From: Yuukianura sp. NJ FZ-2021
Lineage: Eukaryota
Length of the DNA stretch: 64,000 nt
Assembly: GCA_046563655.1 (NCBI GenBank)
Contig: CM102283.1
Span: 496,001 to 560,000, forward strand
Reading direction: 5' to 3'
The notes beneath the pieces are model-generated. The model was given only the letters and a program-made list of their open reading frames with translations, was not told the DNA's origin and ran no database searches. Positions 40,705 through 64,000 of this stretch are shown one piece after another (position 1 is the stretch's first letter; every line of letters begins with the position of its first letter). The position numbers and the translations under genes are program-made.

Positions 40705-43700
40705 ATGAGTAGATCTACCAGTCCTAGGGATAGGGGAACAAATAACCTACACGCTTTTCCTTTGATGCCTCCATTAATTCCTGCACCACCACCATTGCCC
40801 GCAGTAGCTCCTCCAGTCAGCACCATCCTTAATGCTCCTACAATAATGCCTACTGCTTCGGCGGCAACTTCCCCAACCAAACTCAATGTAGTGGCGCAAT
40901 CAACTCCACCGTTGCCGCAGCGAGTTTCGGTACCATTTCCACGATTTGGGGGAACAAAATCTGAATGTGTTCATAGGTTTTTGGTAAAATTGGAGTTAGC
41001 CGCGATGGCTAATAGACTTCCACCAGCAACTTGGGGACTTTTCTTACCTTCATCTTTAGAAAAAGTGGCAGAAGACTGGCTAGTAAATTTTTTGGAACAA
41101 CAACGGGTTACGGCCCCACAGAATACGGCGGTCATCAGCTAATTACGATCTTCGAAACGAGTTGCTTAAGGTTTTCGGCACGGTTGACTCCATTGCGGCG
41201 GAAGATCGTGCTCAGAACAGAAAACAACAAGTCGATGAAAGCATCGAAGCGTACACTTACGATTTACTAAATATCCTGCAACAACTTGATCCCTCTTTAA
41301 CGGAGCCTCGCAAACTAAAATATCTGATTAGAAATCTTCGCCCTTCGTATCTTCAGCAGATGGCGTTGTTAAATCGTAAAACAATAGCCGAGTTTATCAG
41401 TATCGGGAAGACTATCCAAGAAGCTAACTCCATGTTGAACCATCAAAGGGACGTTTTTGCACTTGAACAAGCTCGTGATAGGGTTTCTCTTGAGCCCACT
41501 GTGGGGATACCTTCTACGATTAATGCGGTTAAAACGGCTTATCCTCATCTTTATCCTAACACTGACAAATTTTTAGAAGATACGACATTGGTTCGTAACT
41601 CGAATCTCTATCGCGATGCTACGATGTTTACCCCAAATCCAGGGACAGGGCCTTCTCAAGGTCACCATCGAGGACCAGTAGTGTGTAAACGATGTAATCA
41701 AAGTGGTCATCTGGCACCCAATTGTCCTCAAATCGTTTGTTATCGTTGTGGGCAGAAGGCTCATATCGCTTCGAGATGCCAAGCGGAAGTGTTTTGCTCC
41801 AATCATAATACCAACACACATGCCACAGTAGTTTGTAGGATGCGGAATCAGCAACAACCTTCTGTGCTGAGTCCAGAGAAATATTGTAACTACCACAATA
41901 GCCGCTCGCATAATACGACGGATTGTCGGGCTTTAAAAAACCAGCAGAACGGGACGACACAAGGGGATCGTCCTGTTCAGACGAAAAACCCCTTGATCAA
42001 CTCTCTCAATACGAGATACCAATCCAATTTGAGCAACAACTAATTTTTCACATCGGTATTGCTGAATTGTTGCGAGTCGCTGGCACAGTTAATCACCATC
42101 CTGCAATTATTTTGTTAGATACAGGAGCTCAGGCCTCCCTCATAGACTCTTCTTTAATACCTTCGGATCAACTTCAAACTTTGCCTCACAGTCTCACTCT
42201 TTCAGGCATAGGAGCTACAAAGATTGAACCAGTTGGTAGAACACAAGTCATTATTAATTTACCTAATTTTAGTGTGAACCATGAGGTTCTCGTTGTTCAG
42301 AATTGTCCACTCAAAGTCCTTCTAGGTATGGATTTCTTACAAAAGCATAACGTCAAAATTGACCTTCGTACACAACATGTAACCATGGGGCATACAACGT
42401 TCCCCATCTTTCGTCCTTCCCGTTCGGAGGACATGATTTTCACAACTCTCACAGATGACACGCAGCAAAGACTCTATGTTATTGATACTTCACATTTAAA
42501 ATTAAGCTCCTCGGCCGGGGAAACGGACGAAATTGCTGGTTCTATGCAGGAATTGAACCAGCATATTCAGCCATTACAGGAAAATAGTCTAGAAACCGTA
42601 TTCTTACCAGAGTCAACAGAGAATATGTCTTTCGCGAAGCAACTCTCTTATATGGATTTTGATAGGATGCCTCTGACGAGAGGTGCACTTTCTTACCAGT
42701 CTCTTACCAGCGATTCAAGTATCGGCCATCCTCTTACAAGGGCCACAGTATTACCTTCGTAGTCTTTATTGTGTGGAACCACGAAACATGTTCAGTTTAA
42801 CGATGATCTAGAGGATGAGAATCATAAGCGGCTTTCCTTAGAGGATTTTGATGCTCATTTACAAAATTTGTATTCCCGAATCAATCCTGAGTTGGAGGAA
42901 CCTCAACAACTCCAACTTCGGAAGTTATTTAAATCTTACAATGATGTGTTTTCTTTCAAAGATGAAATTGGTCTTATCAAAGATTATGTGCACCATATTG
43001 TTTTGAAAAAAGATGCTAAACCATTTCGACACCAACCGGCACGGCGAAGCAAAGAGGCCATGGATGCCGAAAATAATACGATTAAAGAACTACTCAGGCT
43101 TGATAAAATTGAGCCTAGTAACTCCAACTTTCTTTTTCGGACGGTTATGGTTTCCCAGGGTATAACTCAGGCGTTATGATCCAAAACCGGTTATTCCCTC
43201 CAGGCAAAGTTATGATCAAAGGCCACCTACATACCAGTTGATCCCAACGGCTCCCTTGGCAGTTCCTCCTGAACTTTACACTCAAGGCGAAGGTTTCATC
43301 TGGAAAGGGATACCGCGTCCAGCATAGTGAATCCAGTCTTTTCTTCAGTACAATACGAGTCTATTTTACCCTTTGTTTCATCATGCACTCTACTGTCTTC
43401 ATTGGCTTCTTAGGCCTCATATGCTCGGCCCAATCAACTATTGTCCGAACGCTATCCGACATCTCAACAGTTACTAACCTTTCGACAGCACTATCGCATG
43501 ATGTATCAGAAAATCGTCAACTATGGGACAATCGGCGCGAGTTTAATGAGTCCCATTCCAAAACTCACCGTTGGATTATTGGAGTTTTAAGTTCTTACCG
43601 ACAGCCACAGGCTCTTCCTCTGCATCACGCCACATTAGCTTCCGTCGAATTTACTGTTCATGCGAGCCAAGGAAATCCACGAATAGCGTATGTGTGTACT

Positions 43701-55599: not shown

Positions 55600-56522
55600 C
55601 ATCAAAAATATTATGGAAGAATTTGGAGTGGACGAAAATAGCGGAATCAACAACTACAGTTTCACCTTCTCCTTATTTTATGTACAAGATTCCTTATTCC
55701 ACTTTCCTCTTACTCCTCACTCCTGAAGAAATTAAAAACAATCTCACAAATATTCTGCTTCATAACACCATTTAACACAAATTTAATATAAACTAACCCA
55801 CACAGTATGTTAATATTAACTATGCACAATTAAGATCACTCAGTTTATAATAACATTAGGACATTGTAACGTCGGATTTTGAACATCCCGGATTTCGTGA
55901 ATTTCGGGATGAGTCAAAATCAGACTATAGTTAATTAAGCATAATTTAAAGAGTACAAGACTAGTATGCAAATTGATAAGGTTGCTTTTTGAGACAAAGT
56001 TGCAAAGATTAATGTTAATTGATCTTTGCAATGACAGGTCAGAAGAAGGCTGACGCGACAGTTTTACTTGTCCAACAAGTTTAAAACTTGTTGGACATGT
56101 GAAGTCATGCCACCCGCGAGTGATTTTCATACAAACTAACATCGTTGTCAATTTGCATACGATCACAACTTTGTCCGATATCAGACATTACTGACAGAAC
56201 TGGATCATAAATCCTGGTCATTAACGTCTGATCACGGACTAGAGTCCAAAAGGTGTTGCCAAGGGTTATGAGGTCAAGGGCCTCATAGGAGAGTTAGTTT
56301 AAGTGTTTAGATTAATTAAAACTAAATTAGTTAGTTAGGGCGAATGCCCATAAGTGTTTGTCCCCTGTCTCCCTCTCCTTTTGGAGTCGGCAGAGCCGAC
56401 AGAAGAACCCAGCAGCACTTCTCCTGCAGCAGCCACGCCGTCAACAGCTCTGCCTTGCTCCGTCCAGCCACAAGTCTGCTTCCCCGGTCAACTGGAGGTC
56501 AACCAGGTCAGATCAGCGTGTG

Positions 56523-56610
56523 GCCAGTGATTGGCCTAGCCAGTGATTGGCTTGTGGTGGCCAGTGATTGGCCGTAGCCAGTGATTGGCTTGTTGTGGCC
56601 AGTGATTGGC
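56523..56610 (-). promoter_or_regulatory. Five tandem GCCAGTGATTGGC units (reverse CCAATCA / NF-Y-like boxes)
   Basis: Copies at 56523, 56539, 56560, 56577 and 56598. Confidence 0.6.
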
Positions 56611-57215
56611 CTCCCTTCCCCCGGATCCGCATTTCGGTTGGTTATGGCCCTTAAGGCCCGTTAGTTTAGCCACAAGGGCTCCTTTGTATTTAGTTAGGGT
56701 TTGTTTGTTTCGTTCGCTACGATTTAAAATAAATCGTAGCCACAAAGATCATCGGTTTTGGGTTTGTTTTTGTTTATTTCATTGTGAGGCTGGAGCAGTG
56801 CAGAGAGGCACTGCTCAAGCCTCATATCTGGTGCCCCGAGCATTAACTGCCCCTTCAGTCATTGTTTTCATGGGTATCGATGATTAATCAGTGATTAATC
56901 ATCGATTCATCGTTAAATTCGTAGAAAAATCGGTTGAGGTGCCGCTCTGGGGGTGGTAAAGGCATGGTCCCCACCTTTTAGTACATGAACCGTATGAAAC
57001 GGTACGGTTTTGCGCATATGTTTTAAAGTCACATTTTTGATTTCAATTTTTCTTTTGAGCGCGGTCCGCACCCAACTTCAAATTTTGAATTTCATTTTCA
57101 TTTCTTACCAAAGTCAATTTCTTAGTAAATGTACATGCATTTAACTTAAATTTACCGATTCCTAATCAAAGTTTGCGTTCCTAAAACTGAGTTTTTGTTC
57201 TAATTCTGTAGATAC

Positions 57216-58448
57216 ATGGTCCTCACTCGTAGTAAAAGCAAGGAATTAACGAATTCTCAAACGGAAGTACCCGCTCCGCCCGCGCTCAGACCGCTCACAC
57301 CCGTGCGTGCAAGCAGCGCACCCCCATTTGTTTTAACGGTTTCTCCCGCTACTCCTAAATCGGAAACAGAATCGGAGGAAGAGTTTTTAGATTCTTTTGC
57401 AAACATGGCAACTAACGACGCGAAAGACGCGGAGATTGCCAGTTTACGTGCGCAGTTACTCACAATGCAGACAGCCATGGATGACATGCGTGCACAGTTG
57501 CAAATTGTCGCCGCGCCCGCTCCGGCCGCGCCCGCTCCGGTCACCGCACCCGCTCCTAACGTACAGCCGCCTTCCGCTCCACAAGTGCTATACGTAGAAC
57601 AGGCACCTGTGATTCCTATTCCTAAATATACGCCAAGAATTCCTATTACTTCCTTTTTCAAAGAAGCAGAAGATTATTTTGTTCTTAAAAATTTAAATGA
57701 AGAGTCAAAACTTGTTCTAATTAGCCGAATGTTTCCGAGAGATTCGGACATTTTGCGTTGGTGGCTCGACATTCAAGCCAATATTGCGACATGGGATGAA
57801 TTCAAGGTCGCTTTTCTAAATTATGAGGGGATTGGTCAATCCAAAGATAAACTTTTGTCGGATCTTTTCGCTAAAAAGCAATTCTTTTCGGAGGCTTTCG
57901 AAACTTTTGCATGGGACGTTGCCAATTCTTATAAACGAATAGTCCCAGACGCTTCGAGTGAAACGATTAGAGAACGAATTGTAAACGCTTGTCTTCCTGA
58001 AATTTCTATTTTGCTCAGATCTTCTCCAGCTACTAACATTGCTGAACTCATTGCTCATGGGAAGAGAATTGTATGCGATTTGAATCGAACTCGACGTTTT
58101 GAAAACAAACCTTTGATTCGTTCTCAAGCTTCTGACGATTTTTCGGAATTCAATCAAAGACTTAAAGACAGAGCAGGCGCACGGCAACCGGCTAAAGCTC
58201 CTTACGTTCCAAATTCCTATTCACAGCCTCGTCCTGCTGGGCCTAGTTCAGTCCCACCTGCAAATCCCGGGACAAGTCGGCCTCCTTATACGAATGGGCC
58301 TAGACCTAGCAGTTCGGGTCAACCACCTCCGGCAAAAGAGTGGTCGATTGATCAAGTCCAGTGTTTCCGATGTGAACGTTATGGGCACTATGCAACGACT
58401 TGTAAATTTCCCGCCAAGAAAAATTCTGGGGGTGCCCCAAAAGGTTAA
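57216..58448 (+). CDS. Retrotransposon Gag (410 aa, open)
   Basis: MVLTRS N-terminus, capsid-like core (WW...TWDEFKVAF...KQ..E.F..F) and a single CCHC knuckle. Confidence 0.9.
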   Translation: MVLTRSKSKELTNSQTEVPAPPALRPLTPVRASSAPPFVLTVSPATPKSETESEEEFLDSFANMATNDAKDAEIASLRAQLLTMQTAMDDMRAQLQIVAAPAPAAPAPVTAPAPNVQPPSAPQVLYVEQAPVIPIPKYTPRIPITSFFKEAEDYFVLKNLNEESKLVLISRMFPRDSDILRWWLDIQANIATWDEFKVAFLNYEGIGQSKDKLLSDLFAKKQFFSEAFETFAWDVANSYKRIVPDASSETIRERIVNACLPEISILLRSSPATNIAELIAHGKRIVCDLNRTRRFENKPLIRSQASDDFSEFNQRLKDRAGARQPAKAPYVPNSYSQPRPAGPSSVPPANPGTSRPPYTNGPRPSSSGQPPPAKEWSIDQVQCFRCERYGHYATTCKFPAKKNSGGAPKG

Positions 58449-59029
58449 GGAGGAGTGACTCAGAGGAGAAGGTCGCTCTTCCGTCTTCATTTAATTCTCC
58501 CAATTCGGATCCAGTTTTTTCTGCCATGATTCCTAAACAAACTAAAATTCAGTACGTTACCGGTGACGCTACTCAACCACATTTAAATTCCAAGCGCGGT
58601 ATTTTGGCTCATATTTGCAATGATCAAGGTTTTTGGGGAAAAGGTTTTGTTCTTTCTCTTTCCAAAGCATTTAAAGCTCCAGAGTTAGAGTACAAGAAAC
58701 TCCAAGCTCCAATTCAAAAAGGTTTTGTTCAATTCATTCCAGTTTCTCAAAATCTTGAAGTTGCAAATATGGTGGCCCAGGGACATCCCAAGGAACCAGT
58801 CCCCATTGATTATGACGCTCTCCATGTAGCGCTTCGGACAGTTTGTAAACGCGCTCTTGAGACTGGAGCCGCGGTTCACATGCCAGAAATTGGTGTTGGT
58901 TTGTCTCGTGGAAGGTGGAACATCATCGCTCACATTATTTTTCTGGAGCTATGTATGAACGGCGTAGAAGTTACCGTCTATTCCCTTCCACAGAGAGTTC
59001 CAAATCCGCCAAACCTACAAGGAAGGTAG
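58406..59029 (+). CDS. Macrodomain (SCO6735/ALC1-TARG1-like ADP-ribosylhydrolase) in the -1 frame relative to gag
   Basis: IQYVTGDAT.P, ILAHICNDQGFWGKGFV.SLS, VANMVAQ, IDYDAL, VHMPEIGVGLSRGRW, GVEVTVY. The frame is open from 58406 (first ATG 58526) with no stops. Confidence 0.9.
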   Translation: MSRQEKFWGCPKRLRRSDSEEKVALPSSFNSPNSDPVFSAMIPKQTKIQYVTGDATQPHLNSKRGILAHICNDQGFWGKGFVLSLSKAFKAPELEYKKLQAPIQKGFVQFIPVSQNLEVANMVAQGHPKEPVPIDYDALHVALRTVCKRALETGAAVHMPEIGVGLSRGRWNIIAHIIFLELCMNGVEVTVYSLPQRVPNPPNLQGR

Positions 59030-59349
59030 GACGGGAGTTCCCTAGCCTTCCTAAATCGGATTTTTCAAAAGCAGCTCCCACAATTAAATTAAAAATCAGA
59101 CATTCAATTCATTCTGCCCATTTAGATTCATTGTCTACTTATTCGATTATTTCTGCTTCTTTGGCTAAACAACTCGGTTTGGTTATTAAGCCAGGGCAAA
59201 TTCAATTAACGATCGGTGACTCCAGTACAATCAGTACTTCCGGAACTTGTGAGCTACATTTCAAAATTTATACGGACGAATACATTCAAACAGTCCATGT
59301 GCTCCAGTCTCCGCCGTTCCCTATTATTCTCGGACTTGACTTTATTCGG
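59008..59349 (+). CDS. Retropepsin-like aspartic protease (start of pol), truncated by insertion
   Basis: PTIKLKI...AHLDSLSTYSIISASLAKQLGL...IGDSS...G...ILGLDFI in the -1 frame relative to the macrodomain; the active site is DSL rather than DS/TG. Confidence 0.75.
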
Positions 59350-59564
59350 TGTGGTGTATTTGGCAATTTAAATAAACGATTATTTAATTAACTCAAAAAA
59401 CTTAATACTAAATTAAGTGTGTGCTGAGCGGCACTCAAACATTGAGTGCCAAAACTATGTGATTTTGAGAGAGTGGTGGTGACTTAAAAGTAACCGCCAC
59501 TCTGGACACAAAACTTAACTTACGGGGAAGTTGAGACTGCGCTGAAAAGCGCAAATACATTACA
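59350..59564 (-). repeat. 3' LTR (215 bp) of element 4
   Basis: Minus-strand PPT GAGGGGAAGGAA then TGTAATGTATTTG...CAAATACACCACA (imperfect terminal inverted repeat). Confidence 0.85.
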
Positions 59565-59844
59565 TTCCTTCCCCTCTAAGAAAGATCGCTTTCCAAAACG
59601 TTTTGGAGAAGGAAAGAGAAGGAAAGGGACCCCAGCATCTTGGTACTTGGTGGGAGCCACTGCTTTTGAGATGGAGGTGGACGAGGCCTCCAGCAGCACC
59701 AAGGTTTTGCAAAAACCATCCGCTGAGGGGGTAAGGTAGGTTAAGGTACCGGAAGGAGAGTGACCTTTCTCTGAGAGGAGGTTACAATCAGAGAACTGGG
59801 ACCTTAACTTATACTTACAGTTATGTACACTAAACCGTTACAGT

Positions 59845-62800
59845 TCAGTTTTTCTTGCCTTTAGCGGCACGCGGAAGAACTGGACGACGTTGAGTCGGCG
59901 CAGGGACTGGAGTTGCTTCCGGGGAGGTTATCGGACTTTGGTTAGGGGACGGCGTAGTGTAGTCGTCCTCGTCCGGGGATTCGTATTCCGATGACGGTTC
60001 GGAATCAGCATTTGAGTACTCCGTAGGTAGGTGCGGAGTTAGAATCGGAGCAAACGAGTGAGGAGACGGGACTTTGGCTGGCGTTTTCGGAGTCAGACTA
60101 GACTTTGGAGTGGACTTAGAAGTTGGTGACGTCACTGGCTTTGCAGTTTCGGAGTTTAACGCCACTTCCTCCTCCTCCAAGTTTTGAAACGAAAACGGAG
60201 AGGTCCGTGCGTCGAGTAATTGGTCCTGGTGACGACGGTACCTACTAGTCTCAAACTGGACAACAACAGTTACGGGACCTTTGAATTCGACAATTTCACC
60301 TAATGACCATTTTGGATAATCTTTTTTGAATGATTTAAACCAAACCCGTTGACCAATGTGAAATTCCCTGTGTCTCGCTCCTTTGTCGAAATTTGACTTC
60401 TGCCGTTCCTGCTGAGACGAGACAGTCTGTTTGACGTCAGGACGGAGAAGATCGAACAGTGAACGTAGACGACGACCTTGGAGTAACTCGCATGGTGCGA
60501 CTCCAGTGGTGATATGAGGAGTAATCCTGTATTGGAACAAGAAATTTTGCACAAAATAATCCAAATCACCCTTACTTTCAATTGACTTTTTGAAGGTGTT
60601 GACGAAGTTCTCCGCTTCGCCATTGGACCGAGGATGGTAAACGGAACTTGTCGTGTGTTTCACGCCGTTCGACTTCAGGAATTGTACAAATTCGGTTGAA
60701 GTGAACTGGCGTCCGTTGTCTGTGACCACCTGTCTAGGAATACCGAAACGGACAAAACACTCACGGAATTTGGTAATTAGAGCCTGAGATGTGGAATTAG
60801 AGTTCAAACAAAATACCTCTGGCCACTTACTATGTGCGTCTACGATTAGTAGCCACATTTTACCTTTGAATGGACCGGCCAGATCTGCGTGGAGACGGTG
60901 CCACGGCTTTTGGGGAAACTCCCAAGGATGAAGTTCCGCTGGTGGTGGATCCTTTGCTGACTCACGGCAGTGTGTACAACGTTTTGTGACTTGTTCAATG
61001 TCAGAATCCAGTTTCGGCCACCAGAAAAATTCTCGGGCAAGAGATTTCATCTTCACGATTCCAGTATGAGCAGAATGAAGTTCCTGGAGAAGATTCTCTC
61101 GTAGTTTTTCTGGGATGAGTACCCGAATACCCCATAGGACAACGTTACTGGCAATTGTCAATTCTTCCTTCCGTAGGAAGTATGGGTACAGTAGGTCGGT
61201 CTTGTCCACTTTCTCTGGCCAGCCGTCACGAATGTACCTAAAAACCTGCGATAAAATTTTATCCTTTTTAGCGTACCTCTGGATCTCTGTGGAAGTGATG
61301 GTGACGGATTCGGTGGCAACTTTCACTGCGTTGACGAGACCTTCGTCGTCGTCGTCAAAAGTCACGTCATGGCCAGAAGTTGGGAAGCGTGAAAGGGCGT
61401 CTGCATTCCCATGTTCCGTCGTCTTCCTGTAGTGGACATCGTAGGAGAATTGTTGAAGGAACAGACTCCAGCGATGAACACGAATCGCAGCGAAGGACGG
61501 AAGCGCCTTGTTTTTGCCAAAAATGTGGACGAGAGGCTTGTGGTCGGTTACTAGGGTGAAATGTCTACCTAGAAGATACTTGTAAAACTTTTTGCATCCA
61601 AATACAATTGACAAAGCCTCTTTTTCGATTTGAGAATATTTTTGCTCAGTTTTGGTAAGAATTTTAGACGCGTACGCAATTGGTTTTTCCTTACCATCTG
61701 CCATTCTGTGGAATAGGACAACCCCTAGACCAATACCTGAAGCGTCGCAGGAGATCCCAAGGGGCAAATCCTGGTTGTACAAGGTGAGGACTTCAGTAGA
61801 TGACAGTTTCCGTTTGATTTGGTTGAAAATCTTTGTGTGTTGACTTGTCCACTTCCAGTCTACGTCATCGTGTGTCAATTTGTAAAGTGGAGCTGAAAAT
61901 TCTGCGAAATTGTCAACAAAACCACGGTAAAAGTTTACCAGACCCAGAAATGAACTCATTTCCTTTTTGTTGGTCGGCTGGGGCATCTCGAGAATCGACT
62001 CCACGAGTTTTGGAGAAGCGCTAATTCCCTCCGAGGTCAACCTAAATCCAACAAAATCAACATTTTCCCGCATGAACTCACATTTTTCCCTCTTCAGAAA
62101 AAAGTTGCGGTCCCTCATCCGCGACAGAATGAGGCGTAGGGTGTTGAGGTGGGTTGTCTCATCATGCCCCGTGCAGATGACGTCATCCATGTAAGCACCA
62201 GCTTTTGGAATTCCAGTCAAGAGTCCATCCATGAACTCTTGGAAAATCGATGGTGACGATGAAATGCCCTGAGGAAGTACGTTGTACTGGTATAACCCCT
62301 TGTGAGTGTTGACTACCAAGTACTTTCTGCAACTTTCGTCTACTGGGATTTGGTGGAAGGCGTCAGGGCCATCTAATTTTGTGAATTTCTGTCCACCAGA
62401 AAGCAAGTTAAACAAATCCTCAGTACGAGCAATGGGATACTGGTTAATGTTCAGTTGGCAATTAACAGTGTTTTTGAAGTCCCCTGTAATTCTGACTTTA
62501 CCGTTGGGCTTTAAAACGCAAACGAGAGGTGATGCCCAGTCAGAATGCTCGACTATTGTCAGTACTCCTTGACTCACCATTAGATCCAATTGTTCGTCGA
62601 CCTTTGACCTGAGTGCGAACGGAATTGGACGAGCCTTGAGGAATCTGGGTTGTGCGTCTTCCTTCAGGACAATTTTTGCACGAAAATCCGTGACTGACCC
62701 AGTTGGATTTTCAAAAACCTGAGAAAATTCAGTTAGCACACTTTCCAGGGTTAAATTTTTCATCATGTTACAATGAGACAAATTTTTTCCAATTTCAACC

Positions 62801-63990
62801 CAATTTAGTTTTACCTTTCCCATTAAGTCACGACCAAGTAGGGAAGAACCAGTTGTCACTGGAAATTGGTGTGACACTTTTTGACCATGGTACGTGACTG
62901 TCGTTGGTAACTCACCCTTTGGTCGAAACGTCACGTCAGGATATCCTTTGAAGACGAGGCTGGACTTTTTCAAAGTCGGAGATCCGAGACTGGCCCAAAA
63001 ATCCTCCGAGAGCAGACTGTGCTCACAACCTGTGTCTAATTCAAAGGAATGTGGAACACCATTGACAATTAGACTTACGCACAGTTCCTTACGTTTCCCA
63101 TAATGAACATGGTTGACAGACGAGATGTTTGAAACTTTCCCGTGTCCAGAATTGTCACGTTGGGCAGGGACTGACTTGCCCTTTGACCTGCAGTATTTTG
63201 CGTAGTGGCCCTTTTTCCCACACGAGTGACATTCTACGTCCTTCTTGTCACAGTCCTTGGCAGTCGAGTGACGATTGGATCCACAGTTCGGACAATTCTT
63301 CTTCTGATTTTGACTTTCCTGTGGAACATGATTAGGTTTCGGTTTAAACTTTTTACCGTTTCCTTTCCCTTTACGTTGAAATACTGCGTTGACTGTTTCC
63401 TCTTTTTGCTCTGTTTTCCCGTCTCGGATCAGCTGTTGTGATTTAATCGCAAGTTCGTGCGATTGAGCGAGAGAGAGTACGTCAGCCAGGGAAATATCAT
63501 CTTCCTTCGTGAACAGTTGTTTTTGTGCAGCAGCATTTCCTAAACCTAGAATGAACTGGTCACGGAGGCGAGTATCGAGACAACAAGTGAATTTGCATGT
63601 AGTTGCCAATTTTCGCAATTCGGCCAAAAATTCAGCAACCGACTCACCATGTTGCTGTACCCTTTTTCCAAACTTAAAACGTTCGGAAATTACCTTAGGA
63701 GACGGTTTGAAGTGCTTAGAGAGTGTATCGATTAGCACTTGCAGTGTTTTGGATGTAGGATCCTCCGGCGAAAGGAGATCCTTTAGGAGCGTGTACGTAC
63801 GCATCCCTAGAGACGAGCAGAAGACGGCCTTACATCTCGTGTCCTGTTCCTTTTCGTCGATACCGTTAGACAGGAGGAAAAATTTGAATAAGTCCGTCCA
63901 GTCGTCAAAGTCATCTTTGTCATGATCAAAGGACGGAACGGAGCCGATGACGTTAACGAACTGAGTCGTTTTAGAAGAGCCAGAAGCCAT
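59845..63990 (-). mobile_element. Ty3/gypsy (Mag-like, K02A2.6-type) LTR retrotransposon, intact single gag-pol ORF (1381 aa)
   Basis: Gag with two CCHC knuckles, protease LDTG, RT LPQG/YMDD, RNase H CDAS..EKE..TDH, integrase HHCC plus D-D-E (HADL, TDNG, NGEAE). The 5' LTR lies beyond the window. Confidence 0.96.
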
Positions 63991-64000
63991 GTTTAGCTGT

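Follow-up and report, generated by a model that had tools for sequence, protein, structure and literature searches.

How is an enzyme domain expressed when it lies in a reading frame of its own between the gag and pol genes of a retrotransposon? The question is raised by a 64,000-nt stretch of the Yuukianura sp. NJ FZ-2021 genome (contig CM102283.1, positions 496,001 to 560,000; the window), in which a young env-less retrotransposon of the Ty3/Gypsy type, with long terminal repeats (LTRs), carries a macrodomain open reading frame (ORF) behind gag. The element is probably read as gag, macrodomain and pol through two programmed -1 frameshifts, slippery site 1 being the first. The features concerned are sorted by position; aa, amino acids.

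57216..58448, + strand: gag ORF, 410 aa, with a capsid-like core (weak Arc_C match) and one CCHC knuckle (58362-58403).
58406..59029, + strand: -1 ORF, 207 aa, ending in TAG at 59027-29.
58436..58442, + strand: slippery site 1, C CCA AAA, in the gag codons GCC CCA AAA GGT TAA (X XXY YYZ phase).
58449..58482, + strand: site 1 stem S1, 11-12 bp, from sequence and RNAfold, with GGAGAA (58465-70) in its loop.
58495..58500, + strand: TTCTCC, 3′ arm of the predicted pseudoknot stem S2, pairing with GGAGAA.
~58547-58990, + strand, within the -1 ORF: SCO6735/BT1257-like macrodomain (phmmer 2afc 6.6e-31, 5e3b 8.8e-29).
58861..59349, + strand: start of pol (protease), -1 relative to the macrodomain ORF; weak aspartyl-protease matches.
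59008..59014, + strand: slippery site 2, G CCA AAC (T CCA AAC in subfamily B), from the macrodomain frame to the pol frame; pattern CCAAAC-N6-GGAAGGTAGGAC.
59021..59079, + strand: site 2 stimulator, a predicted pseudoknot with a bulged 10-bp stem (59021-30/59041-51) that contains the macrodomain TAG.

Slippery site 1 and its stem

An initial annotation of this DNA had placed a heptamer in the gag frame ahead of the gag TAA, followed by a 6-nt spacer, a stem of 11 bp, two of them G-U, and a loop pairing, with the -1 frame open from 58406 into the macrodomain. All of this was recovered base for base. The spacer (GGTTAA) is within the 5-9 nt range of canonical -1 signals. The S1 arms, GGAGGAGTGAC (58449-59) and GTCGCTCTTCC (58472-82), form the 11 pairs, and RNAfold adds a twelfth (U58460-G58471). 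GGAGAA can form 6 Watson-Crick pairs with TTCTCC, with a 12-nt connecting loop. The heptamer is the sole candidate in the gag/macrodomain overlap in copies A1, B1 and B3.

The 34-nt S1 hairpin has a folding energy of -17.2 kcal/mol (z -3.22) and none of 200 shuffles was as stable, the segment having been picked after the hairpin was seen. Only 3 of the 412 canonical + strand heptamers of the window precede a 34-nt fold at least as stable as -17.1 kcal/mol: site 1 and two overlapping matches (41932/41935) where gag meets protease in an unrelated Gypsy element. At that junction (41935-41995, + strand), A AAA AAC is followed after a 5-nt spacer by a stem of 11 bp, whose loop can form a 7-bp helix (CAAGGGG/CCCCTTG); it is another predicted long-stem pseudoknot -1 signal.

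Copies of the element were compared. Eleven copies in the genome include the junction region, 5 of them with the macrodomain and 6 without; a twelfth gag copy (C5:281346-281855) ends before the junction and is excluded from all junction counts. Between subfamilies A and B, site 1 is the top-ranked 47-nt segment: 44/47 positions are identical, versus 68% for the gag-protease region. This score is reached by 4 of 2078 segments, all beginning at 58436-39, despite near saturation of synonymous sites (pS 0.63-0.73). The exact S1 pattern is found at 5 places in the genome, all macrodomain-bearing, with no control matches. S2 is identical in both subfamilies (6 bp and 12-nt loop). Conservation of heptamer and stem in other copies, on which the initial annotation had made its signal depend, is thus seen in 4/5 heptamers and 5/5 stems, and also in an element from another organism, L040.

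L040 has a gag 48% identical to that of the window. Its gag ends in G GAA AAC TAG at the same position as site 1, the spacer is likewise 6 nt, the stem is homologous, and the -1 frame reads ...LHFLEGDATRPV, the first macrodomain residues, until the contig ends. Relative to the window, its S1 has one compensatory change (A-U to G-C), one wobble-to-Watson-Crick change (U-G to C-G) and one broken pair. Its loop helix is register-shifted, is 7 bp long, shares GGAG/CUCC and is changed on both sides; such a helix with an 11-nt loop arises in 2.4% of shuffles. A loop-downstream helix is possible at site 1 in three lineages, in a shifted register in L040. A metagenome scan (113 pattern matches) gave 8 relatives; no relatives were found among 36 pattern matches in viral contigs. 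In 7 of the 8, the gag terminus consists of a heptamer (G GAA AAC, A AAA AAC or G GGA AAC) and a stop; the Gag of the eighth (L044), read at the protein level, terminates in QGN. Site 1 is probably the ancestral gag-pol signal, with the macrodomain and a second signal added behind it, because relatives have a single gag-pol shift at the same place.

Several observations weigh against this signal or its pseudoknot. Folds of the larger 75- and 78-nt regions around site 1 are non-significant (z -0.69 and -0.79). S2 alone is weak: an equally long helix is found in 11% of shuffles and in 61/2031 segments of the element, a chance level of 3-11%. PMC5009743 names four heptamers as the strongest, and C CCA AAA is not one of them. 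The stem sequences double as protein-coding sequence. The fifth macrodomain-bearing copy has lost the heptamer (C CTA AAA), and a 1-nt deletion, real or an assembly error, lies upstream of site 1 in that copy and one other of the five. The covariation check proposed for the pseudoknot gave a divided result: one S1 pair is compensated and S2 is changed on both sides in L040; A and B have the same S1, so that covariation depends on L040, the one outside sequence, itself with a broken pair. The programmed -1 shift from gag to the macrodomain is well supported by these comparisons. The site 1 pseudoknot is a plausible prediction, to which L040 adds support, and is less firm than the stem.

In one copy (L002, G000:C11 ~446260), the two LTRs are identical (561/561), 1 nt is deleted ahead of site 1 and the heptamer is altered. 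Its gag ends in CCC TAA, with the macrodomain frame at +1. CCC_UGA is a known +1 shifty context (PMC5009743). A switch of shift direction would be conceivable in this copy; an assembly error or a dead copy is as likely.

Slippery site 2, the apparent route to pol

The initial annotation took the macrodomain to be an integral, expressed part of the element. The shift into the macrodomain is supported; the description was incomplete, as pol lies behind a second -1 signal and 6/11 copies have no macrodomain. The CCAAAC-N6-GGAAGGTAGGAC pattern of site 2 occurs at 11 places in the genome, with no control matches, and the site is kept in 11/11 copies (T CCA AAC in 6, G CCA AAC in 5 including that of the window). 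The spacer is 6 nt, as at site 1. Pairing is possible between the loop sequence GGGAGT (59033-38) and GCTCCC (59074-79), 22 nt downstream; 6/6 pairs are possible in 11/11 copies, the changes (U-G/C-G and A-U/G-U) being one-sided only. The pol frame of the 6 macrodomain-less copies opens just 3, 3, 6, 6, 6 and 18 nt upstream of the heptamer, which pins the shift to site 2. No ATG is found within the first 110 pol-frame codons in 3 of the 4 copies checked. Site 2 is the apparent route to Pol.

U_CC is listed as an exception to the XXX rule (PMC5009743). G_CC is absent from the exceptions given in that passage, which counts against the window copy; its site 2 may be weaker for this reason. In subfamily A, a T CCA AAT stands 9 nt upstream of site 2; it is not taken as the main site, since it would leave a spacer of 15 nt and the other 9 copies lack it. 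Stop-codon readthrough was ruled out, both downstream ORFs being in the -1 frame.

Both shifts could be real and be stimulated by plain hairpins, the loop-downstream pairings being a by-product of conserved codons. A 6-bp match is indeed found in 9-11% of shuffles, the 3′ arms of S2 encode Ser-Pro and Ala-Pro, and within the genome S2 of site 1 is nowhere changed on both sides. This reading is judged unlikely: the L040 helix is changed on both sides and is longer, every change in S2 of site 2 preserves pairing, and the same layout recurs at 41935 in an unrelated Gypsy.

Alternatively, the macrodomain, Pol or both would be made without a ribosomal shift, by way of an internal ATG at which ribosomes reinitiate, a spliced RNA or slippage of the polymerase. 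Subfamily A has an in-frame ATG ahead of the macrodomain (58526), which is a point against the need for a shift at site 1. In addition, a Met precedes the protease motif in B1, and in another element, L043, the domain has a separate ORF after pol, with its own ATG. No usable ATG serves the macrodomain in subfamily B, where the first in-frame ATG lies 84-85 codons in, mid-domain, or the protease in A1, a1 and b3. Heptamer, 6-nt spacer and conserved stem at both junctions would also be left unexplained, and expression without a shift appears highly improbable. The standard -1 frameshift architecture proposed initially has in its favour the conservation, the distant homologous site, the selection on the -1 ORF (see below) and the missing ATG in subfamily B.

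Under the two-shift reading, most ribosomes would stop at the gag TAA and produce Gag (410 aa). A fraction would pause at the long-stem H-type pseudoknot and slip on C CCA AAA, giving a Gag-macrodomain protein of ~604 aa that ends at TAG 59027-29. Of these, a fraction would slip again at (G/T) CCA AAC, ahead of the second pseudoknot, giving Gag-macrodomain-Pol. The cascade would set the amounts (Gag > Gag-macrodomain > Pol) and would bring the macrodomain into the particle, where ADP-ribose could be removed from a particle protein or nucleic acid.

The macrodomain, its probable losses and its relatives

SCO6735 (PDB 5E3B) and BT1257 (2FG1/2AFC) are ALC1-like macrodomain hydrolases (PMC9411070). 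The element domain is 39-44% identical to them, and its model (predicted local distance difference test, pLDDT, 85) matches their fold with a template-modelling (TM) score of 0.80-0.85. Sequence, fold and the residues Val/Ile25, Asn27 and Gln85 place it with SCO6735-like domains. By motif, His24, Asn27, Lys34 and the catalytic-site Gln are kept, Val25 is replaced by Ile, and a His-Ile-Cys-Asn motif is present; residue equivalence was set by motif and BT1257 alignment. That Gln is required for removal of ADP-ribose from thymidine, and Lys89 is linked to DNA substrates (PMC9411070). Unlike these proteins, the domain is encoded by a retroelement, has Gln in place of Leu29 and no clear equivalent of Lys89, and its loop following the conserved Gln is ~4 residues shorter than in BT1257, the last being a point against the proposed reading. 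The domain would bind ADP-ribose and probably remove it.

No match to the macrodomain ORF was found in Pfam or NCBIfam; PHROG 335 detects it at 7e-20. A homologue search limited to 91-293 aa gave 21 matches (38-53% identical), among which retroelement forms are not shown.

The macrodomain is under purifying selection. Its ratio of nonsynonymous to synonymous substitution rates (dN/dS) between A and B is 0.064 (bootstrap 0-0.15), compared with 0.038 for reverse transcriptase-RNase H (RT-RH) and 0.085 for the capsid part of gag; as a caution, dS is saturated and the values are rough. Other frames have 3-12 stops across the ORF.

The 6 macrodomain-less copies have gag joined in frame to site 2 and are without zinc knuckle, site 1, macrodomain and a fourth ORF (ORF4, described below), the last being found by tblastn in 0/6. 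In gag, RT-RH and integrase trees, each macrodomain-less group is paired with a different macrodomain-bearing subfamily, and B-side macrodomain-less copies are not a clade in the RT-RH tree. L040 is a macrodomain-bearing outgroup (bootstrap 67 for its placement). A single loss, or a single macrodomain-less clade, was rejected by the approximately unbiased test (p 1.8e-6 for RT-RH, 1.4e-6 for integrase, 1.9e-47 for gag). The macrodomain-less state appears to have arisen twice, two losses being the simplest reading of the trees; recombination may instead be its source. With 6/11 copies lacking it, the macrodomain is not indispensable to the element family.

Could the domain then be a tolerated passenger without benefit, site 1 being merely the ancestral gag-pol shift? 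The copies without it are equally young (LTR identity 99.1-99.8% in 4/6) and its loss arose twice. Its dN/dS, in contrast, is as low as that of the capsid, His-Ile-Cys-Asn and Gln are retained, and the domain recurs in three positions of the Gypsy lineage. The passenger reading is considered quite unlikely.

These positions are the gag-pol middle, a Gag fusion (P0025, a homologous Gag, 38% identical to the gag product, fused in frame to the same macrodomain type) and a place after pol (the L043 ORF, in an element with one gag-pol shift). A host homologue (G000:C7:7420851-7421294, L036) is 49% identical to the element domain. In a quick macrodomain tree (103 rows), the gag-linked domains (88) and the host gene group (89) stand together with a support of 90 in the Shimodaira-Hasegawa-like approximate likelihood ratio test (SH-aLRT), and the L043 domain stands elsewhere; all forks of this kind stay below 95. 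These relationships make direct capture from bacteria somewhat less likely.

The host C7 gene apparently contains a GT-AG intron; its first exon is basic, and it lies between rhomboid-like and SID-1-like genes (neighbours named by eye). In two 95%-identical regions (G000:C9:895279-895710 and C10:530629-531060; L037, L038), a divergent macrodomain ORF without introns (36-37%) precedes a metalloprotease-like ORF and a gag-like ORF; the regions are possibly another cargo-bearing mobile element. P0024, known as protein only, is a macrodomain ORF ending in QGN-stop, as do Gags whose shift site is G GGA AAC, and may belong to a further macrodomain-(-1)-pol element.

The host element and known systems

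The Ty3/Gypsy features are all present: LTRs, primer-binding site, polypurine tract, target-site duplication and the pol order protease, RT, RNase H, integrase. Further features in the window are as follows.

56263..56266, + strand: 4-bp target-site duplication GGGT, repeated 3′ of the 3′ LTR in L032.
56267..56826, + strand: 5′ LTR, 560 nt, termini TATGAGG...CCTCATA, 1 mismatch in 560 versus the 3′ LTR.
56829..56840, + strand: predicted primer-binding-site-like TGGTGCCCCGAG, 3′ of the 5′ LTR.
59350..64000, - strand: unrelated nested Gypsy, single 1384-aa ORF, splitting the protease; 5-bp duplication TTCGG.

The nested element (~5 kb) is inserted in the opposite strand at 59350. The remaining pol (RT, RNase H and integrase; L032:373-3312), ORF4 after pol (L032:3188-3931) and the 3′ LTR (L032:4267-4826) are outside the window. 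ORF4 is Gag-like (weak PNMA match, proline-rich, CCHC knuckle). An env ORF with a membrane anchor, as in errantiviruses and retroviruses, was not found, the maximum 19-residue hydropathy of ORF4 being 0.58. TGGTGCC is next to the LTR in 8 of the 9 other full elements printed; in the ninth, the LTR boundary was called short.

The LTR ends are TA...TA (TATGAGG/CCTCATA) versus TG...CA. ORF4-type Gag-like ORFs after pol are seen in L032, L023, L024, L025, L042 and L047, with similar placement in two metagenome relatives. The protease motif (window ~59122-59136) is LDSLS, versus D-T/S-G, in 4/4 translated copies, and LDACA in L041 and L043. Copies L025, L026, L031 and L033 are inside or beside long tandem-repeat arrays.

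In mouse mammary tumour virus (MMTV) and human T-cell leukaemia virus (HTLV), gag-pro-pol is read with two -1 shifts. The element likewise has three stacked frames, with two -1 events and three nested polyproteins predicted; it differs in its middle ORF (macrodomain versus protease), in being an env-less Gypsy and in the non-canonical P-site triplet of site 2. Two -1 shifts occur in some retroviruses, and -1 frameshifting at gag-pol is known in animal Ty3/Gypsy elements and the Gypsy-derived PEG10/PNMA3, as is the long-S1 pseudoknot of infectious bronchitis virus (IBV) type (PMC5009743). Site 1 shares with these an X XXY YYZ heptamer at the 3′ end of gag, a spacer of 6 nt, an S1 at least 11 bp long and a short S2, the last as a prediction; unlike the animal Ty3/Gypsy signals, it leads to a stop-terminated macrodomain ORF and not to pol. 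Macrodomain ORFs are also carried by fish epsilon-like endogenous retroviruses, LTR retroelements of another class (Basta 2009, as cited in PMC4977317). No Gypsy macrodomain, no double-shift Gypsy and no Gypsy bracketing a cargo enzyme with two shifts was found in the literature searched, subscription literature being mostly outside the search. The slip signal itself is textbook; two signals around a cargo enzyme are an unusual design.

As a speculation, considered doubtful, the lineage may have recruited an ADP-ribose eraser more than once and may dose its particle by the two-step frameshift, in order to strip ADP-ribose from its cDNA, RNA or Gag. Invertebrates would then have an unrecognised transposon defence based on ADP-ribosylation, which the element would counter. 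The derivatives without macrodomain and knuckle would be cheaters on macrodomain-bearing helpers. The layout shows how a gene can be inserted in the polyprotein of a retroelement and how its dose can be set. That a domain of the ADP-ribose-eraser type is under purifying selection and recurs in three positions makes a testable case for ADP-ribosylation acting against retrotransposons.
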